Origin: Candidatus Moraniibacteriota bacterium
GTDB lineage: Bacteria; Patescibacteriota; Minisyncoccia; Moranbacterales; UBA1568
Direction of reading: 5' to 3'
Length of the DNA: 64,000 bases
Assembly (NCBI GenBank): GCA_016699425.1
Contig: CP064975.1
Location: forward strand, 130,979 to 194,978
A program made the translations under genes and the position numbers. A model generated the notes under the pieces. The model did no database searches and was not told where the DNA came from. It saw only the letters and a list, made by a program, of their open reading frames with translations. Positions 3,480 through 27,117 of this stretch are shown piece after piece. The first letter of the stretch is position 1; the number at the start of each line of letters is the position of its first letter.

Positions 3480-4823
3480 ATGGCTAAGAAGAAAGTAGTA
3501 GAAGCGAGTGAGTCAGAAAGCCTCTCGGGCCGGCTCGGCGAATTCGGTAGTGCGGTGATGCAGATCGCCGAAGAAAAGAATCTCCCGCGTGAAAAAGTGT
3601 TTGAAATCGTCGAGGCGGCGCTCGCGGCGGCCTACAAGAAGGACTACGGCAAGAAAGGCCAAGTCATCAAAGCGAAGTTTGATGAAGTGACGAAGTCGGC
3701 GGATTTCTTCCTCGTGAAGGAAGTCGTAGATGAGACCTTGCGGGACTTCACCGTACCAGAAGAGACAGAAGAAGGTGTACCAGAGCAGGGAGGTACTCGT
3801 CCGGAGCTGGTTATCGAGACAAGCGAGACCGACGAGGAGCGACTGCCGCGCTTCAATGCTGAGCGCGATCTGACGCTGGACGAGGCGAAGCTCATCAAGC
3901 AGGATGCCGTTATCGGCGACAGCATCGAAATCCCGCTCGAAAGTCATGAAGACTTCGGCCGGGTCGCCGCGCAGACGGCCAAGCAGGTCATCATCCAGCG
4001 GATCCGTGAGGCAGAGCGCGAAACGATGTTCACTGAATACAAGGAGAAGGAAGGTCAGGCGGTGAATGGTATCGTCCAGCGCATCGAAGGCCGCAATGTC
4101 TTTGTCGATCTCGGTAAGTCCACCGGTATTCTCTTTCCGTCGGAGCAGATCCCGGGGGAGAACTATCGCATGGGTCAGCATCTGAAAGTCTTCCTCACCC
4201 GTGTCGAATCCGATCCGAAGGGGCCAGGATTGATCCTGTCGCGCGCCCATCCCGAGATGGTCCGCCACCTCTTCACACTCGAAGTGCCAGAAATCGCCAC
4301 CGGAACGGTCGAGATCAAAGCGATCGCCCGTGAGGCGGGGAGCCGCACCAAGATCGCGGTTTTGGCCAATGAGGATGGTGTCGATCCGATCGGTTCTTGT
4401 GTCGGCCAGAAGGGGACACGTGTCCAGACCGTCATCGATGAACTCGGCGGAGAGAAAGTCGATATCATCGAATGGAACGAGGATGTGCAGAAATTCATCA
4501 GCGCGGCGCTCTCACCGGCGAAAGTGCTGTCGGTTGAGCTGCGTGAGGCGGAGCAGCAGGCGATCGTCACGGTCCCAGCGGACCAGTTGTCGCTCGCGAT
4601 CGGCAAGCGCGGGCAGAACGTCCGACTGGCGGCCAAGCTCACCGGCTGGCGCATCGATGTAAAGAGTCCGGAGGAAGAGGAAGTCTCCGGGGCAGAGGTG
4701 GAGACTGAAACAGAGGCACTAGCTGAGAATGAGTCCATCACTGAAACCGCACCGGAAGCAACCGAAGTCACCCCGATCTCGGCCGAAGCTTCTCCGGAAG
4801 CTGTTGCAGAGGAGAAAGAATAA
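3480..4823 (+). CDS. nusA: Transcription termination/antitermination factor NusA
   Basis: N-terminal NusA domain, an S1 domain and tandem KH domains (VDPIGSCVGQKGTRVQTVIDELGGEKVDII) are present. The acidic C-terminal tail is typical. Confidence 0.9.
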   Translation: MAKKKVVEASESESLSGRLGEFGSAVMQIAEEKNLPREKVFEIVEAALAAAYKKDYGKKGQVIKAKFDEVTKSADFFLVKEVVDETLRDFTVPEETEEGVPEQGGTRPELVIETSETDEERLPRFNAERDLTLDEAKLIKQDAVIGDSIEIPLESHEDFGRVAAQTAKQVIIQRIREAERETMFTEYKEKEGQAVNGIVQRIEGRNVFVDLGKSTGILFPSEQIPGENYRMGQHLKVFLTRVESDPKGPGLILSRAHPEMVRHLFTLEVPEIATGTVEIKAIAREAGSRTKIAVLANEDGVDPIGSCVGQKGTRVQTVIDELGGEKVDIIEWNEDVQKFISAALSPAKVLSVELREAEQQAIVTVPADQLSLAIGKRGQNVRLAAKLTGWRIDVKSPEEEEVSGAEVETETEALAENESITETAPEATEVTPISAEASPEAVAEEKE

Positions 4824-4873
4824 AAAGAACAGTATTCTTTCAGCTCTAACCTAACCTTTAATCTCTTACTCCT

Positions 4874-5413
4874 ATGAACTTGTGGCATGATGTGAAACTT
4901 GGCGACAATGCCCCCGAGGAGATCAATGTCATCATTGAGATTCCCAAGGGCTCGCCCAACAAGTATGAAATCGACAAGGAAACCGGGCTGATCAAGCTCG
5001 ACCGCGCCAATTATTCAGCGGCGCCGTACCCGTTTGATTACGGTTTTGCGCCGCAAACGCTCTGGGACGATGGTGATGCGCTCGATGTCATCGTGCTCTC
5101 GACCTTCCCGCTCGCGCCCGGCATCCTCGTGAATGCCCGGCCAGTCGCTATCATGGAGATGATCGACGGAGGGGACTCTGACTACAAGGTGATCGCGGTG
5201 CCGGTTGACGATAAGCGCTGGGATGATGTGAAAGACCTGAAGGATGTAAACACGCACAATTTGAAAGAATATCAGCACTTCTTCGAGACCTACAAGGTTC
5301 TGAAGGGGAAGAAGAACGAGGTCGCGGTTCACGGTTTCAAAGGCCGCAAGGATGCGCTGGCTGCCGTGAAGCGTTCGGTGAAGCTCTATGCGAAGGAGTT
5401 TGGGAAGAAGTAA
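4874..5413 (+). CDS. ppa: Inorganic pyrophosphatase (family I)
   Basis: EINVIIEIPKGSPNKYEIDKETGLIKLDR...YGFAPQT...DGDALDVIVL core motifs and the right size (179 aa). Confidence 0.9.
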   Translation: MNLWHDVKLGDNAPEEINVIIEIPKGSPNKYEIDKETGLIKLDRANYSAAPYPFDYGFAPQTLWDDGDALDVIVLSTFPLAPGILVNARPVAIMEMIDGGDSDYKVIAVPVDDKRWDDVKDLKDVNTHNLKEYQHFFETYKVLKGKKNEVAVHGFKGRKDALAAVKRSVKLYAKEFGKK

Positions 5414-9080: not shown

Positions 9081-10361
9081 TTAGGGGTGGATCTTCTTAT
9101 AATCGCGCCACTGCTTCTCCGACCAGCCTTTCGGTTTCGTGGTGTAGTTCGGTTCATCACCCGGATGTGGGAAGAGACTCGGCGACTTGTAATTACTCCA
9201 GAACATATCATCGATGAGCGTATTGCCCGAGGCATCCTTCACCGTGTGGGTGAAGACGGTCTTCATACTGCCATCTGGGTGGCTTTCGAGGATATGCGGC
9301 CCATCGATGGTGACGGTGCGGCCATCTCGGGTGCCATACATGGAAAAGGTGAGGAGGGTGCCGTTTATTTCTGGCACGAGGAGGATGGTTCCGGGGGTGT
9401 TGTTGGTGAACTTCAGGTCCGGCCGGGGGACATAGACGGTCGCATCCATGCCATAGGGCTTGTAGTACTGGACGGGGTAGGCGTGGTTCCGGCGTTCGGT
9501 GATTTTCAAACCAGATTGGAGGGCAGCGCGGAAGACCGTCGTCGAGACTTGGCAGATGCCGCCACCGAATTCCGGCTCGGTCTTGTTGTTTTTGATGACG
9601 AGTTCAGGGAGATAGCCGTGTTCGCCGTCGACTTCTCCGAGATGATCGACGAAGGAGAAAGTCGCGCCAGGCTCAATAATGACACCGTCGAAGTCTTGGA
9701 TGGCGCGAGTGATGTTGTAGATGCGATTTTTCGGCGAACCACGGAAGTTCGTCGTGGCCGTCCCGATGAGCTCGGTGATGCCAAGGCTAGAGAGTGTTTC
9801 GGCCGAGACTTTGGCTGACGTGACGATGCTCGGGAGCCGGATGGTCAGGGTGGCCTGTTGAGCGGAGCGAAGAGCAGATTCCAATTGGGCCAGACTCGCT
9901 TCGATGTCTACTGTGATGCCATTTTCTGCGGGTACGGCGATGGCGACCGAGGCGTCTTGGACAGTGAGGCGAGCATCTTTCGGGTCGCGGTCGGCTTTGT
10001 CGGCGAAGCTCTCGATACTCATCCTCAGTCGATCAGGGAGGAGTTCGAGCGAATGAGCCAGGACGATGTGACTGCGAGTGGCGCGCGAGAGAAAGGCGTC
10101 GCAGAAACTCGGGAGCGGATCACAAGCCCGAGTCGTATCCTCAAACTCAGGCGACTTTCCTGGTTCGTAGGTGAGATGCGTCTTATCGGTATACCAGGAA
10201 AGGACCTCGGTGTGGTCCATAATCTGGACGAAGGCATCAGTTTGCAGGGTCAGGTCATCCGGAATCGTGAATGCTCGGACAATTCCGGGACAAAGAAAAA
10301 CAAGAGCAACAAAAGGTGCCGCATACAACAGCTGAAGATACCGAACAACGCGAATGGGCAT
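9081..10361 (-). CDS. VanW-family protein with N-terminal TM anchor
   Basis: Conserved VanW core (GATFSFVDHLGE...GGGICQVSTTVFRAALQSGLKITERRNHAYPVQYY). Confidence 0.8.
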   Translation of the reverse strand: MPIRVVRYLQLLYAAPFVALVFLCPGIVRAFTIPDDLTLQTDAFVQIMDHTEVLSWYTDKTHLTYEPGKSPEFEDTTRACDPLPSFCDAFLSRATRSHIVLAHSLELLPDRLRMSIESFADKADRDPKDARLTVQDASVAIAVPAENGITVDIEASLAQLESALRSAQQATLTIRLPSIVTSAKVSAETLSSLGITELIGTATTNFRGSPKNRIYNITRAIQDFDGVIIEPGATFSFVDHLGEVDGEHGYLPELVIKNNKTEPEFGGGICQVSTTVFRAALQSGLKITERRNHAYPVQYYKPYGMDATVYVPRPDLKFTNNTPGTILLVPEINGTLLTFSMYGTRDGRTVTIDGPHILESHPDGSMKTVFTHTVKDASGNTLIDDMFWSNYKSPSLFPHPGDEPNYTTKPKGWSEKQWRDYKKIHP

Positions 10362-18058: not shown

Positions 18059-18415
18059 TTACTGATCTTGCTGATCGAGTTTGACCGCGGCCTCAGGCGT
18101 CGAGACGCTCATGCTCATGACGAGGAGCTTGATGATACCCCAGGCGACGACGAAATATACGAACATCGCGAGGATAGTCGTCCACTCAAAGACACTGCCT
18201 TGGGCCTTGGAAACTCTGAAGACCGTCGCAAACGGCGCGGTGAACGGTGCCGTCACCATGTAGATGAAACTGGTGAACCCGGCTCCAGCATTGGCACCGA
18301 GGAGTTTCAGCACGAGGCGGAAAGCGAGAAGCACCTCGACCAGACCGAGGATATACCAGACGATCTGGGTCCCGCGGTAGAGGGGGCGAGTGCTGCTGGA
18401 TGACATGGCATCCAT
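18059..18415 (-). CDS. YggT-family membrane protein (tentative)
   Basis: 118 aa, two TM helices and topology typical of the YGGT family. The assignment rests on pattern only. Confidence 0.45.
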   Translation of the reverse strand: MDAMSSSSTRPLYRGTQIVWYILGLVEVLLAFRLVLKLLGANAGAGFTSFIYMVTAPFTAPFATVFRVSKAQGSVFEWTTILAMFVYFVVAWGIIKLLVMSMSVSTPEAAVKLDQQDQ

Positions 18416-18573
18416 AAGGGTGAGACTAATAATTACATACCAACGGTCCGAAAAGCACAGCTTTGGTCCATAGGGTGATGTAATTAAAAGGTTCTCTTGG
18501 TACCTCTAGTATACTCTTTTTTGGCGAAAGAAGTAGCGAGTGTTTAAGCTGTCTCTTGAGGCATTGGAGTCAT

Positions 18574-18607
18574 AAAAAAATTCAAGGCGTAAGATTGCTC
18601 TTACGCC
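18574..18607 (-). terminator. Rho-independent terminator (GGCGTAAGA-GCAA-TCTTACGCC followed by TTGAATTTTTTT on the minus strand)
   Basis: Nine-bp perfect stem followed by a U-tract, directly downstream of the secreted-protein gene. Confidence 0.7.
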
Positions 18608-18630
18608 CTGTAGTACGTGGACGATGTCCG

Positions 18631-19044
18631 CTATTTTCCGCTGAGGATCTCCGCGATCCGCGCTCGACCTTTAGCTTCGGTGGCCTTGGCCCGCTCGTGT
18701 TCGGCGGTCATGGCGTGGAAGCGCTTCTTGGAAGTGAAGAAGACGACACCGCTCGGGCATGGCGCGCCGAATGCCTGTCCCGGGATGCTGTAGCGGACCA
18801 GGACCAACTCCTCACCGCCTTCGCTCATGAACCCTACGGCGGTCACTTTGCCGGTCTCGTTGATAGAACAAGTTTCCCCGTAGGAAAACTCGTTGTTACC
18901 GCTTGCTACGGGTTCCGGATTCAGGACCTTGACCCACTCGTGGCCGGGGACCTTGGCTACGTCGCCTTTCTTGATGACTGCTTGTGCCGAAGCGATGGAA
19001 GCAAAGGCCCAGAGCACTGCGGTAATAAAGAACTTGGCTATCAT
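18631..19044 (-). CDS. Secreted hypothetical protein (signal peptide; the ORF extends to 19080 with an upstream Met)
   Basis: MIAKFFITAVLWAFASIASAQA signal peptide followed by a ~115-aa domain. Confidence 0.5.
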   Translation of the reverse strand: MIAKFFITAVLWAFASIASAQAVIKKGDVAKVPGHEWVKVLNPEPVASGNNEFSYGETCSINETGKVTAVGFMSEGGEELVLVRYSIPGQAFGAPCPSGVVFFTSKKRFHAMTAEHERAKATEAKGRARIAEILSGK

Positions 19045-19152
19045 GGAAACCTCCAGTAAGTTGTGTCTAGTGGTAATCACCAGACTCCATATACTAGCAC
19101 ACTTTTAACTCCCTGTCCAGTTGAAAATAGTCCTAGAAAAGCCTCGATTCTG

Positions 19153-19177
19153 TATATTTTCCGTAGCCCCAAGGGGA
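19153..19177. repeat. attR-like partial copy of the tRNA-Glu 3' end (left island boundary)
   Basis: 15/15 identity with 25274-25288, then 6/10 matches over the next 10 nt. Confidence 0.55.
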
Positions 19178-19275
19178 GTTTCGCCTTGCTGTCTGCTGAC
19201 AGCTTCGTTGTCCTGGGCAGCGCTGAATGCTCACTCGCATTCATCGACACTCGCCATGCCTTCACGGCAGGGCTC

Positions 19276-19296
19276 GCACCTGCCCGTTCGATTCCC
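19276..19296. repeat. Inverted partial copy of the tRNA-Glu T-arm/acceptor (CCCGTTCGATTCCCCTTGG)
   Basis: 16-nt exact match to the reverse complement of 25281-25296. This is an additional tRNA-derived scar at the island edge. Confidence 0.5.
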
Positions 19297-19511
19297 CTTG
19301 GTAAAAATACCAACAAAAAACACCGCTCCTCGCGGAGGGTGCTTTTATTGGTCACGTAGACCAAATAAGAAAGTCGTGGAATCAGATTATACCAGAGCTA
19401 AAGGAGTGGCAAACCCTTCAGAAGGAGGAAGTAGAATGCTCGGTATTGGCTTAATTACGCTTCCCCACTGCGGTCGCTAATCTACCCATAGGGAATAGAA
19501 ACGCCTAGAAA

Positions 19512-20222
19512 TCATCGACTTCTTAGTATCTCCTGTTTTTCAATCTTACTGGCTTCGGCGTTTTCTTCTAGTTCAGCGAGTATAATCTTCTTTTCTCGGT
19601 CAATTTCTTTCTTGTCTAGTTTTGGTCCTCTAGTCTTCAAGAAGACCGTCATTATTTTATTGCCTAGGGGTTTATCATACTTGATCTGTAAACGAACACG
19701 CGCCAGTAAAGTCACTATTTTATCCTGTAAGTGAATCAGAAAAGGTCGTAGCTGCTCATCAAGTGATCCAGCCAGCGATCCAACATTACTCCTGTAATCT
19801 TCTAGAGTTAGGTTCTTTTGAAGTAATGCTACACGAATCTCATCATACCCCTTTGATATATTCTCCACGTCATCATTTAACCTTCTTAAATCGTAGTGAT
19901 AAGCATAGAGTTCGTTCTTTAACGATAGATCGTACAGCATTTCGTAGTGAGATTTATCGATGGACAAGTAGCGCAGATGTTCAAAAGTAACATTATTTAT
20001 CTTGATAGCCGCTACAAACCGGCCTATTGTAAACAGATTATCTTGAATTACAGCCCCGTCTTCGAGGAGCTGCATCTCAAGACTTACTAAGGAGTTATAG
20101 TGTCTGACTTGTCTCTCATAAAGCTTTGTGAAGAACTCTGCTAGGCGCAAAAAAAGAAAAGCAAAAAAAGCTCCAGAAAATGCACTTATCATACTGAAAG
20201 CTATGTTGGATTCCATAGTCAA
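19512..20222 (-). CDS. Island cassette gene 4: hypothetical protein with N-terminal TM helix
   Basis: 236 aa, AT-rich codon usage, one N-terminal TM followed by a predicted coiled-coil/soluble domain. Its start overlaps the stop of the upstream gene by 4 nt. Confidence 0.55.
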   Translation of the reverse strand: MTMESNIAFSMISAFSGAFFAFLFLRLAEFFTKLYERQVRHYNSLVSLEMQLLEDGAVIQDNLFTIGRFVAAIKINNVTFEHLRYLSIDKSHYEMLYDLSLKNELYAYHYDLRRLNDDVENISKGYDEIRVALLQKNLTLEDYRSNVGSLAGSLDEQLRPFLIHLQDKIVTLLARVRLQIKYDKPLGNKIMTVFLKTRGPKLDKKEIDREKKIILAELEENAEASKIEKQEILRSR

Positions 20223-20497
20223 TCCCGTGTCTCTTTACAAATATATAGCCCCAGTTCTTTATCTTGGATCTTACACTTATAACCACATTCAAAAGTAGCA
20301 TTAGGTAAAGAGCGCTTAGAAAATTCGAAGCCCGCCAGACATTCTTCGAAAGACTCGTAAGAGTCTATGGCTTTGATAGCTTCTTCTGCTAACTCGCCAT
20401 TCGGATATACGAACAAAGACCATCTATCCTTCTGCAGGAAAGAAATTAAGAACCCTACGCCAATGACGATAAAGGCTACAACAAAAAACTTTTGCAT
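20219..20497 (-). CDS. Island cassette gene 3: small Cys-containing membrane-anchored protein (92 aa)
   Basis: N-terminal TM (FFVVAFIVIGVGFLISF) followed by a small domain with four Cys. Translationally coupled to its neighbours. Confidence 0.5.
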   Translation of the reverse strand: MQKFFVVAFIVIGVGFLISFLQKDRWSLFVYPNGELAEEAIKAIDSYESFEECLAGFEFSKRSLPNATFECGYKCKIQDKELGLYICKETRD

Positions 20498-20509
20498 AGA
20501 AGAAGGCTC

Positions 20510-20692
20510 TTAGCAGGCGGTAGTATAAGTAGATACCTCACCCTCCTTAATCTCAAGGGCTATTCGTCTTAACTCGGTAATCTCTTCTGCCTCTTCTCTT
20601 GTTACCTCTTCGGAAACTGCAGTATCTCTAAGGCTATCTTCCTTAGTTACCTCATCAAGTTTAGTGAATATGATACTAAAGTCTCTACTCAT
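20510..20692 (-). CDS. Island cassette gene 2: small acidic protein (60 aa)
   Basis: Glu-rich 60-aa ORF whose start overlaps the protease gene stop (ATGA). Confidence 0.4.
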   Translation of the reverse strand: MSRDFSIIFTKLDEVTKEDSLRDTAVSEEVTREEAEEITELRRIALEIKEGEVSTYTTAC

Positions 20693-21843
20693 ACGATTTT
20701 CTTTTTTGTTTGTGATTCTAGTTGCTGACGTAAATTACCCAGATCAATTTCTTTCTTACACGAAGGACACTTAATTTTATTGTCTGCTGGAAACTCTATA
20801 GTTCCAGCCTCCAGAGGCCTTTTCTGATCGAAGTCCACTTGAATTTTTGAAGTGTGATTACAGTTCTGGCACTTAGCTTCGACAACTGCTCCGTTTGCTT
20901 GAGCCGGATTAACGTTTGTATTTTGAGCTAAGAACCGATAAATCTGAGAATCTACTGTTTCGATTACCTTGTATATACTCGTTGAACTAAAGGTCATTTC
21001 TAGCAGGGTATAGTACCTTAGAATAGCTTCTTCTAATTCGGTCCCGGTGTAATCATTTATCTTCAGCTTCATTGAAGCTAAGTCTTGTATCTTGAGAGAC
21101 TTAGCGTGAGTTTTCCATCTAGAATGGTCGCTCAGACTTTTAGCAATCTCCTCAGCTCTTTTTTCCTTCTCTTCAGGTGTTACGGGTCGTCCGTCAGAAG
21201 AATGTGTCGTCCAGTCTTTGAACTTATATTTAACTAACCACTCCTTCACTAAAACTCGAGCAAACTCCATAGCATTCTGAGCGTTTTGAAGTTCTCCTGG
21301 AGATATATTCTGGAGAATAGGAACGTAGGCACGATTCAATATACCTGTTTCCAAGACTTCTTTCTTAATCTTTTCCATCCCTTCTAATAAAGCATCTGCA
21401 GAGAATTGCTTATTCTGGGCAAGCATTTGAGCATCAATTGGCCCAAGGCTGGATAGCGATCCCATTAATATTTCGTCTCCAGAAAGAGCGATGATGGTTC
21501 CGGCGCTTTTTGCGTAGCCAGGGATAATAACGGACACCTCTTCATACTTCCCTCGCAATAATCGGACAATATCTTCTGCCACCTCGCCAGAACCACCGGG
21601 AGTTTCTAAAATAAGATCAAGCTTTTTACCTTTTAGATTTGAAAGCTGATCACTTACTGGTAATAGATCAGCATAGCCAATAGCTATAAGGTTGGTTTGC
21701 TTGTTAAGATCGGCAGCATACACTAAAACATCCCTATTCCCTCTAAGGCTAGATATTTTTTGCAATTGCTTCTTCCTTTCCAGAGAAAGAGCCTCTAGGT
21801 TGGAAGCAATATTCATATTCAGATATTCGCTATAGTAGCCCAT
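20689..21843 (-). CDS. Island cassette gene 1: ClpP/S49-fold serine peptidase (SDH/prohead-protease-like) fused to a C-terminal CxxC...CxxC zinc ribbon
   Basis: LDLILETPGGSGEVAEDIVRLL...IIPGYAKSAGTIIALSGDEILMG matches the ClpP/SppA-type nucleophile context. The C-terminus has CQNC...CPSC. Confidence 0.6.
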   Translation of the reverse strand: MGYYSEYLNMNIASNLEALSLERKKQLQKISSLRGNRDVLVYAADLNKQTNLIAIGYADLLPVSDQLSNLKGKKLDLILETPGGSGEVAEDIVRLLRGKYEEVSVIIPGYAKSAGTIIALSGDEILMGSLSSLGPIDAQMLAQNKQFSADALLEGMEKIKKEVLETGILNRAYVPILQNISPGELQNAQNAMEFARVLVKEWLVKYKFKDWTTHSSDGRPVTPEEKEKRAEEIAKSLSDHSRWKTHAKSLKIQDLASMKLKINDYTGTELEEAILRYYTLLEMTFSSTSIYKVIETVDSQIYRFLAQNTNVNPAQANGAVVEAKCQNCNHTSKIQVDFDQKRPLEAGTIEFPADNKIKCPSCKKEIDLGNLRQQLESQTKKKIV

Positions 21844-22239
21844 TCTGATTTCTTTAAGTCAAGTTGATTTTAGCACTTTTTAAGCATCTAAAAAATAGAT
21901 TAAATTATCATTGAAATCATAGGCTTTGTAAAGTCATTTTTCAAAAACTGAAAAAATTATGGGGGACGTATTATACCGTATATCAGAGATCTGTTTTTAA
22001 TCCACCCCCCTCACCCCTGTAGCTCCTGTGGAATTTGAATGATCCAAAAAACCAGTTTTTTAATTAAAGAAATGGGGAGGATGTATTAGCTAAGATCTAA
22101 TCGCTAGGCCCATAACAAAGAAGTTACCTAGCAAAAGGATAAAGGCCCTGATATAAAGCTTCTTTAACAATTACTACTCTAACCTTGAACGCAGAAGCAA
22201 GCGAACACATAAACGCTTGAAGCGAACTCTGTTTCGCTT

Positions 22240-22386
22240 CTAGTTATTGTCCTTAGACACTCTTTTTCTTTCTTCTAACCAGTGGCATACAAGCCAAATA
22301 CCACCAATGATAAGCGTCAGTAAGCCTACGACGCGCAAGAGGTTGTCAAACCATACCGAGAAACTAACGGTCCCTAGTTCTTCCAT
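22240..22386 (-). CDS. Candidate 48-aa hydrophobic peptide (MEELGTVSFSVWFDNLLRVVGLLTLIIGGIWLVCHWLEERKRVSKDNN) in the island non-coding spacer
   Basis: ORF found by hand (below the 60-aa cut-off of the ORF track) with a single TM helix. No clear SD. Confidence 0.2.
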   Translation of the reverse strand: MEELGTVSFSVWFDNLLRVVGLLTLIIGGIWLVCHWLEERKRVSKDNN

Positions 22387-22622
22387 AAACAGTACTTAAT
22401 GCTTAGGCTCTCCACATCGGACGCAAAACAAAAGGACGCCCGACTGGTTAGCCACGTTCGGTGTCCTTGCGGAAGCCTACTTATGACGTCGAGCGCCCCT
22501 TTCAGGCCACAAATAGGCCAAAAAAGACGCAAAGACGTCTAATTTCCGCAAAAACACAACGTAGCTAACCACCTTGATATTATCTTTTAAAAAGTCTTAA
22601 ATCAAGGTTAGGGGGATTTCTT

Positions 22623-23264
22623 ATGAGAATGAGTATGATACTGGACACCAGGAAAGCTTTTAATGCTGGCCGTTTTCAAAGCCAAGAGGAGTTCCTTGCC
22701 TTTCTGCTCGGCGATACACTGTACGAGCACAGAAATATTTATTTTCAATGCGATAGCCAGATCTATTATTCTATTGAGGAGAGCCTACGTGATAAAGAAA
22801 GGAAGAGATGTTTCCGCGTGGAAGTCTCTAGGCTAGAGGGCTATACCGGATATTTTTTTCTGACAAATATCAGCAGAACAGCCCTAGAGAAGAATGATTC
22901 CGAATGGCCGAAAGCAAAGATTAATCGAAGCCTGAAAAACGAGGCTCTAATGTTTGATACAGAAAAGTCATTGATCGCGGGGAAGACTGCCGTTAGTAAA
23001 ATCAAACCTAATACTAAGGAGAATGGGCTTTGCGTCTTTTTGTTTAAGCAGAAGACAGACCACTTTGTTGATTGGTCTCTCTTTATGGAGCACTGCACTG
23101 GGAGTGAGTACAATATGACAAAAGATGACAAAGCAAAAAATAACAGTGACAAGAAGATGATTAAAGATACTATCGATCGAATAAACAAAAGGGTTCAGAA
23201 GGACTTTGATGTAACGGATGAACTGTTTCAGTTCGAGAGAAATTGTATCAAAAGAAACTTTTAG
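22623..23264 (+). CDS. Island hypothetical protein (213 aa)
   Basis: AT-rich ORF upstream of and co-directional with the recombinase. No motif recognised. Confidence 0.5.
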   Translation: MRMSMILDTRKAFNAGRFQSQEEFLAFLLGDTLYEHRNIYFQCDSQIYYSIEESLRDKERKRCFRVEVSRLEGYTGYFFLTNISRTALEKNDSEWPKAKINRSLKNEALMFDTEKSLIAGKTAVSKIKPNTKENGLCVFLFKQKTDHFVDWSLFMEHCTGSEYNMTKDDKAKNNSDKKMIKDTIDRINKRVQKDFDVTDELFQFERNCIKRNF

Positions 23265-23343
23265 ATAAGCCAAAAATCTTTTGTCGGAAGTGAGTCACGG
23301 GGGTAAGGCGTAGAGTTGGGGCATAAAACCTCAACTCTTTTTT

Positions 23344-23583
23344 ATGCAGGACAATCACTTTTCTACTTCTGACTTTTACCTAGCCGCCTATTGTGTCGCC
23401 CAAGGGATGAAGATAGCAGGTATCAGCCGGAGCGGATCCGGTAAGGCAACTTTTCTTTTGGAGGGTGCGCCAAAAGGAAGAGAACTAATGAAAGAGTTCT
23501 TATTTAGTGACCCGAATGTAGAGGCCAAGCGTTTTGTTTCGGCAATCAAGGAACTGAAGCAATTACTTTATTCGGTAGCGTAG
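23344..23583 (+). CDS. Island small protein (79 aa), possible recombinase accessory or directionality factor
   Basis: Small basic protein immediately upstream of the serine recombinase. The functional call rests on position only. Confidence 0.35.
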   Translation: MQDNHFSTSDFYLAAYCVAQGMKIAGISRSGSGKATFLLEGAPKGRELMKEFLFSDPNVEAKRFVSAIKELKQLLYSVA

Positions 23584-23587
23584 CGTG

Positions 23588-23764
23588 ATGATCTCCATTG
23601 AAAGATGCCGACAACTAGTACCTGATCTCAAAAATCTCTCTGATGAAGAGGTTATTGAGATTAGAGAGAATCTCTATGAGGCAGGCTTGCTTGCTTTAGA
23701 GGTTTGGGCCGAAGAGAATAGTGGTTCCAAAAATCCCCCTTGGGTATTGCCCGCCAGGCCTTAA
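23588..23764 (+). CDS. Island small protein (58 aa; MISIERCRQLVPDLKNLSDEEVIEIRENLYEAGLLALEVW...)
   Basis: Hand-found ORF between the 79-aa gene and the recombinase. It is acidic, helical and tightly packed against its neighbours. Confidence 0.3.
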   Translation: MISIERCRQLVPDLKNLSDEEVIEIRENLYEAGLLALEVWAEENSGSKNPPWVLPARP

Positions 23765-23788
23765 GGAGTACCATAGTAGTAAACAAAA

Positions 23789-25312
23789 ATGAGTATGAAA
23801 AGTTCTGATACAAAAACTGGGATTATATACTGCCGAGTGTCTTCACTGGAGCAAGTGGAGGGCACAAGTCTTGGAACGCAGGAGAAGATCTGTCGCGAAT
23901 ACGCCAACAAAGAAGAGATCAAAATCCTTAAGGTATTTGTAGAAAAAGGAGAATCTGCAAAAACAGCTAATAGAACAGAGTTTAATAAAGCCATCGCTTT
24001 TTGTGCAGACAAGAAGAATCAAACAACTTTCTTCATTGTTCACAAAGTAGATAGGTTTGCGCGTAACCAGGACGATCACGCCATTGTAAGGAGTAGCTTA
24101 AAACGTCTAGGTGTTGAGCTAAGATCAGCGACCGAGCCAATCGATGAGACTCCTATGGGGCGTTTTATGGAAGGGGTCTTGTCGGCCACTGCAGAGTTTG
24201 ATAATAGTGTCCGTTCAATTCGTACCACACAAGGTATGAAAGAACGTCTCAAAAATGGCATCTGGGTATGGCAAGCCCCACTTGGGTACCACAGACCCTA
24301 CAGGGGTTCAAATCTCTTTCCTGAACCAAATATAGCCCCTCTCATTAAGCTAGGGTTTGAGGAATACTCAAAAGGAACCTACACCTACGAAAAGCTTGCC
24401 TTGTTTCTTTCTGAAAGGGGTCTTAGATCTAGAGCCGGAAAAGCTATCACTCCTCAGTTAATGGAGAAAATCATAAAGAACCCTCTCTATTGTGGAGTCA
24501 TCAAAACCTGGGGTGAGTCCGAGGGAGCTTTCGAGCCCATCATATCGAAGGAGTTATTTTTCAAGTGCCAGCCGGAAGGCATAAGATCAGCACAACCGAA
24601 TCCGCGCTCACTCAATAACCCTCTTTTTCCGTTAAGGCGTTTCATACAGTGTAGCAACTGCGAAACACCTCTTACAGGTAGTACGTCGAAAGGCAGGGAC
24701 GGGAAAGGGTATCCATACTATCATCATCACCATAAGGGCTGTGAGGAGGCTAAATCTGTACCCAAAGAAGCTTTCGAGCAGCTCTTCATCCAATTTTTAG
24801 ATGATATTTCTCCGGATGCAAAGTATGAGAAGCTTTTCAAGGCTATTGTTCTGGATATTTGGAAGAATAACTATAAGAGAATTGATGAGGAAAATGCCAA
24901 AATAAATAGAGCTGTTACTGCTTTAGAGAAGGATAGACAAAAAATCTTTGATCTCCATCGTTCTGGAAAGTATTCCGATGAAGACTTTGATGAGCAAAGG
25001 AAACTAATCTCTGTAAAGATAAATCAGAAACGACTCCTACTAAGGGAGAAATGGGATGAAGAGTTTGAAATGGAAAAAGTTTTAGACTACTGCTTTATCT
25101 ATGTTCGAAACAGTGCTGAGGCGTGGAAGAAGGCCCGGTATGAACGAAGAATAAGACTACAGAAGCTAGTCTTCGCCGGAAGGATAGATTATGACGGAAA
25201 GAAACTTGGAACCACCGAATTACGGCAGATCTATCGGATAAATCAGGCATACCAGTCTGATAAATCCTCTTTAGTAGCCCCAAGGGGAATCGAACCCCTC
25301 TTACCAGGATGA
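23789..25312 (+). CDS. Large serine recombinase (integrase)
   Basis: N-terminal resolvase catalytic domain (IIYCRVSSLEQ with the catalytic Ser, KVDRFARN), a recombinase domain and a C-terminal Zn-ribbon region (CSNCETPL...HHHHKGC). The last 38 nt are tRNA-Glu sequence. Confidence 0.85.
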   Translation: MSMKSSDTKTGIIYCRVSSLEQVEGTSLGTQEKICREYANKEEIKILKVFVEKGESAKTANRTEFNKAIAFCADKKNQTTFFIVHKVDRFARNQDDHAIVRSSLKRLGVELRSATEPIDETPMGRFMEGVLSATAEFDNSVRSIRTTQGMKERLKNGIWVWQAPLGYHRPYRGSNLFPEPNIAPLIKLGFEEYSKGTYTYEKLALFLSERGLRSRAGKAITPQLMEKIIKNPLYCGVIKTWGESEGAFEPIISKELFFKCQPEGIRSAQPNPRSLNNPLFPLRRFIQCSNCETPLTGSTSKGRDGKGYPYYHHHHKGCEEAKSVPKEAFEQLFIQFLDDISPDAKYEKLFKAIVLDIWKNNYKRIDEENAKINRAVTALEKDRQKIFDLHRSGKYSDEDFDEQRKLISVKINQKRLLLREKWDEEFEMEKVLDYCFIYVRNSAEAWKKARYERRIRLQKLVFAGRIDYDGKKLGTTELRQIYRINQAYQSDKSSLVAPRGIEPLLPG

Positions 25313-25346
25313 AAACCTGGCGTCCTAACCGATAGACGATGGGGCC
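25275..25346 (-). tRNA. tRNA-Glu (anticodon TTC); its 3' end is overlapped by the serine recombinase ORF
   Basis: Acceptor GGCCCCA/TGGGGCT, D-arm GTCT-ATCGGTTA-GGAC, anticodon stem CCAGG/CCTGG, loop TTTTCAT, T-arm AGGGG-TTCGATT-CCCCT. Confidence 0.8.
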
Positions 25347-25554
25347 GTCCTGCGCTAAAGCTTCGGAACGGCAAGCCTTCAATAGAGACGAAAAAAGCCT
25401 CTAGAAAGGCATGGCTACTGTATCATACGGGATGATTTTGGCAAGCCACTAAGAGCGATGAGAGAGCAGAGTTGACAGCAATCGTATACCGTGATACACT
25501 CCACAAGTTATTTTGGTTCCTTTTTCAACAGCAAGACCTCAAGGGGGGTAGAAG

Positions 25555-25797
25555 ATGCAGGAAATAATTCAGCAGGTGAACCAGCTGGCGATGCTGGTCG
25601 GCTACGGGGTTTTCGTAGCGGGTGCCGGGTACATCGCCTGGCAGGCAAATCGAGCCTTGGCTCGCCGCCGTAAGAGGAGGCTTGCCAGTGCTCCGCTGGA
25701 AACAGTACTCTTCAACCCGTTCGGAGAGCAAGAAATTCCTCTCGGGACCGAAAGCTGGGGAGCGGCGGCTGCAATGCAGAGCCAGACGAACAACTAA
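25555..25797 (+). CDS. Small membrane protein (80 aa)
   Basis: SD AAGGGGGGTAGAAG upstream of the ATG. One TM helix (LAMLVGYGVFVAGAGYIAW) and a basic stretch. Confidence 0.45.
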   Translation: MQEIIQQVNQLAMLVGYGVFVAGAGYIAWQANRALARRRKRRLASAPLETVLFNPFGEQEIPLGTESWGAAAAMQSQTNN

Positions 25798-25875
25798 ACG
25801 CCAGTCAGAACTAGAAGGCTGGCAAGACAAAGATCCCTGCTACGCATTGCGCGGCAGGGGTCTTCACTTTTTTAC

Positions 25876-27117
25876 TCAATTTTCCGCGCGGTATTTTGTG
25901 ATGAGATCAGCGTAGAGCCGGGCGCTCGGGCGGATGGTGCGTTTCTGGGTGATGCGGTCGACATGGACGAGGCCAAATTTCAACCAATAGCCCTTGTCCC
26001 ATTCGAAATTGTCGAGGAGCGACCAATAGAAGTATCCACGGACATCGACACCGTCATGGATCGCACGCTCCATTGCAGTCAGCGCGGCGGGGATGAACTT
26101 CTGGCGCAGTTCATCGCTTGCATCAGCGATACCATTTTCTGTCACATAGATCGGCTTGCCATATGACTTCAATTCGACGAGGGCGTGGTAGAGCGACTCT
26201 GGATAGTATTCCCAGCCGAAGTCGGTCTGGATTTTGTTTTCATTTTGGTCGAACCAGCCGTCGATGCGGTGGTGATTGTAGTGATTGAGCCCGATGAAAT
26301 CTTGCTCAGCGTCAATCTTGTTGAGGAACCAATGATTCCAAAGCTGATCAGCAACTTTCTTGAGCAGGCGGTTCCACATCGTACTGCCTGCTGCTTCGAA
26401 CCAGATATTATGTTTGGCGATACCGACTTCGGCGTGTGGGAAGTGGTTCTTGATGGTTCGGTAGGCGAGCCGGTGGGCACGGATCAGGTTGCGGAGGACA
26501 GCGAAATACAAAATTGGATTTCTTCGTTGCGGAGGCCAAGCGCCTTTCAGATACCCATGTGAGGCGACGACATCGGGCTCATTGAGCGTGACCCAATACC
26601 GTACGTCATTACCGAAAGCCAAAACCATTTTTTCAACGAAATATTCGAAGTAACATGGAAAATTTTTTGCGGCAATTCCACCCTCTTTGGAGAGCCAGAG
26701 CGGGAGTGTCCAATGCCAAAGGGTGACGAAGGGCTCGATACCTCGGGCGCGGAGAGCCTGAATCATTTGTCGGTAATGTTCGATGGCGGCTTCATCAAAT
26801 TTCCCCATTTCTGGTTCAATACGCGACCATTCGATGGAAAAACGATAAGCACTGAGGTTGAGTGATTTCAGAATGTCGAAATCCTCCCTGTACCGATTCC
26901 AGTGATCGCAGGCGGTGCCGGAGATATAGTTGGCCGGATCGGTCGCTTCAGACTCGAATTTTTTCCAATGCGGATTCCATCGGAAAGACGCCTCTGACTC
27001 GCGAGCCAGTCGGTTGGCATTCTGTTTCTCCCACTCGCTCCAGTCATTGTGCTGGCCGCCTTCGACTTGATGCGCTGCAGTCGCAGCACCCCAGAGAAAG
27101 CCTTTTGGAAACGGCAT
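25876..27117 (-). CDS. Beta-glucosidase, glycoside hydrolase family 1
   Basis: GH1 signatures: FLWGAATAAHQVEG N-terminus, the acid/base TLNEP motif and the nucleophile YVTENG motif. Confidence 0.9.
   Translation of the reverse strand: MPFPKGFLWGAATAAHQVEGGQHNDWSEWEKQNANRLARESEASFRWNPHWKKFESEATDPANYISGTACDHWNRYREDFDILKSLNLSAYRFSIEWSRIEPEMGKFDEAAIEHYRQMIQALRARGIEPFVTLWHWTLPLWLSKEGGIAAKNFPCYFEYFVEKMVLAFGNDVRYWVTLNEPDVVASHGYLKGAWPPQRRNPILYFAVLRNLIRAHRLAYRTIKNHFPHAEVGIAKHNIWFEAAGSTMWNRLLKKVADQLWNHWFLNKIDAEQDFIGLNHYNHHRIDGWFDQNENKIQTDFGWEYYPESLYHALVELKSYGKPIYVTENGIADASDELRQKFIPAALTAMERAIHDGVDVRGYFYWSLLDNFEWDKGYWLKFGLVHVDRITQKRTIRPSARLYADLITKYRAEN

Follow-up and report, generated by a model that had tools for sequence, protein, structure and literature searches.

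A zinc-ribbon SDH protease and its small acidic partner form a conserved gene pair, possibly a defence or addiction module, within the cargo of an integrative island of Candidatus Moraniibacteriota

Do the four closely packed minus-strand genes carried by a small integrative island of a Candidatus Moraniibacteriota genome form a single system, as the initial annotation of this locus proposed, or is the conserved unit a smaller one? The window analysed here is a stretch of 64,000 nucleotides (nt) of contig CP064975.1 (assembly GCA_016699425.1, forward-strand positions 130,979 to 194,978). The genes, which we call A, B, C and D, encode an SDH-type protease of 384 amino acids (aa) with an ATG start (A, 21843-20689), an acidic partner of 60 aa (B, 20692-20510), a protein of 92 aa with an N-terminal membrane or signal anchor (C, 20497-20219) and a membrane-anchored protein (D, 20222-19512) of 236 aa when read from a TTG codon, for which NCBI gives 234 aa from the ATG at 20216. 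All four open reading frames (ORFs) were recovered at the coordinates first assigned to them, but the translational coupling described for the whole set is limited to the A/B junction, the only true ATGA overlap, in which the start of B overlaps the stop of A. B and C are 12 nt apart, while the C/D junction is a 4-nt overlap if D starts at TTG and a 2-nt gap if it starts at ATG. The comparisons below make it highly probable that A and B are a functional unit to which C and D are unrelated.

A search with the A protein found 3,526 relatives, some of them more distant SDH proteases. The best 120 of these 3,526 were all full-length with the zinc ribbon, all carried PF01972 and were 57-65% identical to A, and their labels included Parcubacteria, Bacteroidota, Acidobacteriota, Planctomycetota, Deltaproteobacteria and Legionella pneumophila. 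We then compared 80 A loci, taken from a scan with one genome per species, which spanned more than 20 bacterial phyla as well as Nitrosopumilaceae, Methanomicrobiaceae and Ca. Argoarchaeum, with A proteins 45-64% identical. The results of tblastn with the A to D proteins showed B in 27 of these loci, and C and D in none. Almost all of the loci had an ORF of 47-93 aa on the same strand, starting between -20 and +60 nt from the stop of A, and a search with a B profile built from these ORFs found a homologue in 73 of the 76 informative loci, invariably on the strand of A, and 71 of the 73 homologues ended 171-240 nt past the stop of A. Of the seven misses among the 80 loci, four were contigs that end inside A, and these were excluded.

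All-against-all clustering of the ORFs in these loci yielded no third partner, the only clusters being ORFs read off-frame or antisense within A and families of common paralogues (response regulators and ABC ATPases, for example), and the 150 nearest neighbours fell into 129 Pfam families, none of which was present in more than three proteins. Pairwise identities of A and B were correlated (r = 0.74), with B diverging faster (mean identity of 24% versus 54% for A). The A-B pair is self-contained and moves horizontally between bacteria and archaea. The four genes were found together in none of the 80 A loci and in none of the inspected loci of C or D homologues, so that the initial proposal of a protease acting with three partners gives way to a conserved unit made of A and B.

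The description of A as a ClpP/S49-like serine protease of the SDH type with a C-terminal zinc ribbon was borne out. Pfam PF01972 (SDH_protease) matched residues 71-162 with 65.2 bits against a gathering cut-off of 31.3, the serine motif quoted initially, IIPGYAKSAGTIIALSGDE, corresponds to residues 106-124, and the CxxC pairs are located at 325/328 and 359/362. A consists of a ClpP/crotonase core (residues 38-148, approximately), a helical domain (about 149-287), a beta zinc ribbon (about 318-367) and a terminal helix extending to about residue 380. An AlphaFold model based on 26 homologues had a predicted local distance difference test score (pLDDT) of 86, and the top Foldseek matches of this model were SppA entries, including PDB 4kwb, "SppA with C-termini bound in the active sites". 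In a profile-to-PDB alignment, S113 of A fell on the nucleophile of ClpP and of PH1510. Residues S113, K145, D137, H214, H240 and H246 and the four cysteines were invariant across the A alignment, and the serine motif was kept in 76 of 77 A homologues. A has no hydrophobic segment, transmembrane segment or signal peptide. Judged by the model and the alignments, A is a catalytically intact serine protease of the ClpP/crotonase fold, predicted to be cytoplasmic.

Comparison of A with curated models showed that it stays below the cut-offs of the better-defined families of this fold. The NCBIfam equivalog NF047768 (Clp_like_SDH) gave 73.5 bits where 250 are required, and the relatives of A from Legionella, Escherichia coli and Leptospira scored between 54 and 74; by sequence, A belongs to the SDH superfamily and not to this equivalog. 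Pfam CLP_protease gave 17.9 bits against a cut-off of 20.2, and no AAA+ partner was conserved among the neighbours. The scores with the SppA and NfeD models were 15.1 bits against 155 for TIGR00706 and 27.5 against 40 for NfeD1b_N, with no SPFH gene in the neighbourhood; A is thus not a routine SppA orthologue, and it has no conserved neighbours of the kind expected for one. A role as a head-maturation protease, which had already been doubted, was rejected, since NF045542 gave 35.7 bits against 120 and no structural genes were present in the island or recurrent in the 80 loci; the ORF list, Pfam and PHROG contained no capsid, portal or scaffold gene for the island. Phage prohead proteases share a weak profile similarity with A over the catalytic core, all below the cut-off. 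The best PHROG match of A was phrog_11747, of unknown function (4.5e-56), and weaker matches over the catalytic core were found to phrog_1684, phrog_94 and phrog_53 (1e-8 to 4e-6).

B is acidic, as first annotated (isoelectric point of 4.4), and has neither a signal peptide nor a hydrophobic segment; no family was found for it in Pfam, NCBIfam, PHROG or PADLOC. Its C-terminal tail follows a consensus that keeps a constant distance from the stop codon, [ED]-P-x-[ST]-[YF]-T-x-[ST]-COOH, and the B protein of the window ends in ...EVSTYTTAC. Among the 73 loci, the tail had a tyrosine or a phenylalanine at -4 in 60, a threonine or a serine at -3 in 66, and a serine or a threonine at -1 in 58. Two other motifs were conserved, F-x-I-[IV]-F-x-K-L at the N-terminus and EI-x-EL-R-x-I in a helix. 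The B homologue of Legionella pneumophila (L087-L089) lies directly after the protease gene, at about 9157-9360, ends in ...VQCYSGS and is uncalled in the assemblies. Of the three informative loci missed by the profile, L067 possibly holds a divergent B. No B was detectable in L064 (8001-9185), where the active-site turn of A is the variant PGSSMSAG and one CxxC is missing, or in L071 (8001-9170), where a membrane protein follows A instead; these two may be decaying or rewired copies.

The distribution of C and D was different. Each of the two proteins has a single hydrophobic segment, N-terminal in C (residues 1-24), which also has four cysteines, and at residues 6-28 in D, in agreement with their annotation as membrane or N-terminally anchored proteins. 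We found 13 homologues of C and 53 of D, every taxonomically labelled homologue of D being from Patescibacteria. In the loci inspected, which belong to a family of patescibacterial islands, D recurs behind the cargo genes, at the end of the cargo or close to it, and is often the last gene. It follows HsdM, HsdS and HsdR of a type I restriction-modification (RM) system in L081 (1004-5989), where two small genes of unknown function come after it; an N6_N4 methylase and an 848-aa protein in L083, an island with DUF5659 and HTH_17; a helix-turn-helix gene and a 187-aa protein in L085, an island with a 507-aa serine recombinase; and an HI_1054 helicase in L097, where D is then followed by a HARE-HTH gene. 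In L101, D ends a region with an MvaI/BcnI RM system (3484-5070) and a LexA-like gene. A homologue of C follows SNase and abortive infection (Abi) gene AbiEii in L107 (3837-5988).

The closest island is L095, in which C and D are 83% and 89% identical to those of the window and follow Peptidase_M78 and DUF4411 genes (894-2503) that stand exactly at the position of A-B. This replacement was decisive in showing that A-B and C-D are exchangeable modules. Since both C and D follow quite different cargo in the sister islands, they are not membrane effectors of A; they are separate, Patescibacteria-restricted genes that only share a transcript with A-B here. A 76%-identical homologue of C is also located in a HrcA-GrpE-DnaK neighbourhood in L105 (2965-3252) and L106 (6001-6288), followed by LysE and GDSL lipase genes, and, because this neighbourhood has no island genes, C is not intrinsically island-borne.

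The AlphaFold2 model of D was a helical bundle (pLDDT 87) without any PDB fold match below an E value of 0.2 (the best was 0.23, to PA28-like helical bundles), and D had no family in Pfam, PADLOC, NCBIfam or PHROG. Its N-terminal half is strongly conserved across the homologues (FSAFAGAFFAFLFLRLAEF...HYNSL). For C, a match to Imm41 (17.5 bits against 26.9) was rejected, as was one to Mad3_BUB1 for D, both being below the cut-off. The role of D could be in island maintenance, in exclusion or as a defence accessory. The serine-recombinase/DUF5659 islands of Candidate Phyla Radiation bacteria have a single cargo slot that exchanges RM, Abi, toxin-antitoxin (TA)-like and protease modules, and this slot offers a place to look for new immune genes in Patescibacteria, a group with very few characterised defences.

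What, then, is the A-B pair for? The slot that it occupies here contains RM, Abi and TA-like genes in the sister islands, which were recognised by their C or D homologues or by the DUF5659 and recombinase backbone. Elsewhere, A-B was found beside an AlwI-type RM cluster, beside a Panacea-domain gene and, in Legionella, at the edge of a tyrosine-integrase island, and a Leptospira plasmid carries a 39%-identical relative of A together with a 61-aa ORF. Strong PADLOC matches among the nearest neighbours included BrxL, PglZ, a type I specificity subunit, type II and III methylases, AbiEi and DolB. The architecture of the pair would suit a type II-like TA module, with the ATGA overlap and a B that is small, acidic and fast-evolving, an arrangement in which A would be the toxic and B the neutralising component.

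Distant relatives were observed in enterobacteria. A DNA-level search of E. coli genomes with the Legionella A-B gave no match, although relatives at the amino-acid level could escape such a search. A 300-aa "SDH family Clp fold serine proteinase" was present in 20 of 5,426 complete E. coli genomes; this protein shares 34% identity with A across the ClpP and helical domains (E value of 6e-42), lacks the zinc ribbon and is followed at 0 nt by a 56-aa ORF, both genes being located after a lambdoid-prophage cI-like repressor and beside HicAB. Some E. coli lambdoid prophages have the 56-aa gene without the protease (eight records; L104, 5014-5184, FHI_NMBU_10, as compared with L103, 6001-7074). 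Survival of the small gene alone is expected where the protease is the dangerous partner and the small protein does no harm, and the pattern resembles that of an orphan antitoxin. In a Klebsiella phage, a 71-aa ORF overlaps the start of an SDH-like "SppA" gene beside ImmA/XRE immunity genes. An SDH protease with a small ORF in an accessory position expressed in the lysogen is a recurring theme.

The nearest named system, which is listed in a defence catalogue, has a similar composition. FS_HP_SDH_sah is reportedly a validated anti-phage system from phage-inducible chromosomal islands, and we know of no mechanism for it. The arrangement at our locus had been taken to be undescribed, which is only partly right, since DefenseFinder lists FS_HP_SDH_sah as a hypothetical protein with an SDH_sah protease (PMC13532340). 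Likened by description, FS_HP_SDH_sah and A-B both consist of a PF01972 ClpP-fold protease with an adjacent domainless protein, and both are accessory cargo of small integrative mobile elements. The literature searched on PF01972/SDH proteases gave no worked-out biology, the name FS_HP_SDH_sah being the sole relevant item. The enterobacterial SDH relatives found share 27-39% identity with A, in no case beyond the ClpP and helical domains, and have no zinc ribbon, their small partners do not resemble B, and the Klebsiella phage has the small gene first. By sequence, A-B is distinct from the enterobacterial relatives compared in its zinc ribbon, in its B family with the conserved tail and, with respect to Klebsiella, in its gene order.

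Similar comparisons were made with proteases of established families. SppA (MEROPS S49), the PH1510-N NfeD protease and A share the ClpP/crotonase fold and a nucleophile in the same GxSxG-like turn; unlike SppA and NfeD, A has an additional helical domain and a zinc ribbon, has no membrane anchor or stomatin partner, and is mobile. A serine-protease toxin with an ATPase antitoxin has been described as IetAS, which acts in plasmid stabilisation and against phages (10.64898/2025.12.08.692795). With IetAS there is already a two-gene TA or defence module on mobile DNA whose toxic component is a serine protease, while the partner of that protease is a large ATPase in place of the 60-aa acidic B and no sequence relationship was seen. 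The protease of that system, IetS, is subtilisin-like rather than ClpP-fold.

On these grounds, we lean towards the view that A-B is a defence or addiction (TA-like) module. A defence or toxin role had been suggested initially for all four genes; it is the best-supported reading for the A-B pair and does not extend to the four-gene set. Our judgement is evenly divided on the fuller explanation, in which the island has a swappable slot, the slot holds A-B as an immunity or addiction cassette, and B restrains A. How B might do so can be proposed by analogy. B would bind A and keep it inactive, with the C-terminal tail of B lying in the substrate groove of A as a product mimic, for which the precedent is the SppA structure 4kwb, where the C-termini of SppA itself occupy the active sites. 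Upon infection, or when the element is lost, B would then be removed or displaced, and the freed A would cleave host or phage proteins, so that growth or phage development would be halted. That the tail gates A in this manner, with release upon infection or element loss and with the zinc ribbon possibly serving as a sensor or targeting domain, is a tentative proposal, and one more likely to fail than to hold.

SDH-family ClpP-fold proteases are annotated as "ClpP" by the thousand, and the present comparisons define a much larger zinc-ribbon SDH subfamily, with more than 20 bacterial phyla and archaea, in which A has an obligatory small partner that can be overlooked in gene calling. The conserved tail of B leads to a direct, testable hypothesis of how A is restrained; if true, plugging by the tail would give SDH-protease immunity its first mechanistic model and would represent a new manner of gating a protease toxin. 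Homologues in culturable hosts (Legionella, Bacillus, Oceanobacillus and Geomonas) make such experiments feasible.

Several points weigh against a defence or addiction module and have to be set beside the other explanations. Enrichment of known defence genes near A-B was no more than modest across the 80 loci, some A-B copies stand alone among housekeeping genes in no mobile context, and PADLOC-DB 2.0 had no family for A or B, or for C or D, at E values up to 0.1; with regard to FS_HP_SDH_sah this last negative is uninformative, because no PADLOC model matches the SDH proteases of E. coli, Legionella and Leptospira either. Mutual information was detected between the B tail (arginine at -2) and A columns 85, 118, 142 and 143, beside the catalytic motifs, but it follows one clade and, being confounded by phylogeny, cannot be used as evidence. 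B may just as well serve A as a substrate, an activator or an adaptor; both the interaction of B with A and the direction of that interaction are proposals. If B were a substrate or precursor, A would free from it an active peptide (a signal, or a bacteriocin-like or toxic product) or would degrade it as a timer. We consider this unlikely: small genes adjacent to proteases often encode precursors, A and B are strictly coupled and B has its N-terminal and helical motifs in addition to the tail, but no exporter, modifying enzyme or immunity gene is conserved beside the pair, B has no segment that would direct it to or across a membrane, and docking fits better than an internal cleavage site because the conserved feature is the free C-terminus of B. 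The wider alternative, a single system in which A activates or controls C and D as effectors in a proteolysis-triggered abortive infection, is very improbable. The tight packing of the four genes on one strand between one promoter-like region and one terminator-like hairpin, the predicted membrane anchors of C and D and the pairing of C with D in L095 would all suit it; the lack of C and D in every one of the 80 A-B loci, the presence of D behind six unrelated types of cargo without an A-type protease, the occurrence of C with AbiEii cargo and in a DnaK context, and the A-B pairs that stand alone between housekeeping genes do not.

The location of A-B or its relatives on islands, prophages and one plasmid, and that of the Klebsiella phage SDH-like gene beside ImmA/XRE, could also mean that the pair serves the mobile elements themselves, by degrading host immune proteins as a counter-defence or by cleaving repressors in an ImmA-like manner. 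This is less probable still than a role of B as substrate, since there are A-B copies without a recognisable element, no repressor gene is conserved beside the pair, the lambdoid relatives occupy a post-cI slot that is expressed in the lysogen and typically holds host-protecting genes, and the slot in the sister islands holds defence and not anti-defence genes. The least probable explanation is that A is a housekeeping quality-control protease of the SppA, NfeD or ClpP type and B an incidental ORF. Source annotations do name A as ClpP, and ClpP, SppA and NfeD are its fold neighbours; against this, A scores below the curated cut-offs of the ClpP, SppA, NfeD and head-maturation models, has no transmembrane segment or signal peptide, has no stomatin or ClpX partner and no conserved chromosomal synteny, and is distributed patchily across domains at 45-64% identity, here on a low-GC island, while B accompanies it in 73 of 76 loci. 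The reading that we retain is that of a defence or addiction module built from A and B.

The mobile island first suggested by the annotation was delimited by its low GC content, its serine recombinase, a tRNA-Glu gene and a 15-nt repeat. It is an integrative island of about 6.1 kb (19163-25288 of the window) in this Candidatus Moraniibacteriota metagenome-assembled genome, with a GC content of 0.39-0.44 inside and of 0.50-0.59 in the flanks, and its target is tRNA-Glu. The integration target, a tRNA-Glu(UUC) gene on the minus strand (25274-25346), was identified with ARAGORN and with the Rfam tRNA model (58.9 bits), and the 15 nt at its 3' end form the right copy of the repeat. The left copy, GTAGCCCCAAGGGGA (19163-19177), is an exact match to 25274-25288 and is the displaced 3' end of tRNA-Glu on the attL side. 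The island integrase is a large serine recombinase of 507 aa on the plus strand (23789-25312), with Resolvase, Recombinase and Zn_ribbon_recom domains and a match to the phrog_95 integrase (1.5e-78). Its ORF enters the opposite-strand tRNA-Glu gene by 39 nt (25274-25312), so that its terminal residues, ...APRGIEPLLPG, are translated tRNA.

The rest of the backbone (22623-23764, plus strand) is divergent from the cargo and encodes a 213-aa protein, a DUF5659 protein of 79 aa (1.2e-11) and a 59-aa ORF. The 213-aa protein resembles the 221-aa product of a backbone gene in the sister island L107 (29% identity, 3.5e-24), and the DUF5659 layout is also present in L083, L101 and L107. The 780-nt gap between A and the gene for the 213-aa protein contains a candidate gene on the minus strand (22240-22386), a 48-aa ORF with a hydrophobic segment; in sister islands this position is occupied by an HTH_17 gene, none of which was seen in the island of the window.

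A candidate promoter for the cargo operon is located on the minus strand at 21904-21944, 60-100 nt upstream of the A start, and consists of two overlapping sigma-70-like matches, TTGAAA-17-TATGAT and TTTACA-17-GATAAT, of 10/12 each; the number of such matches in the region was not above that of shuffled sequences. The likely terminator of A-B-C-D is a hairpin followed by a U-run on the minus strand (19306-19345), 167 nt past the D stop. A scan flagged the same hairpin on the plus strand, and its position is conserved in L095. Folding of the minus strand of 19160-19345 gave this hairpin together with a multibranch structure closed by a 9-bp stem. The left end of the island is a GC-rich, structured segment of about 125 nt on the minus strand (19178-19301; fold z = -3.5) that ends in an inverted, exact 16-mer of the T-arm of tRNA-Glu, GTTCGATTCCCCTTGG (19286-19301). 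An Rfam scan of 18400-26000 returned tRNA only, with no family for 19178-19301. This left-end segment is conserved downstream of D in L095 and could be an arm of the recombinase attachment site or a small RNA.

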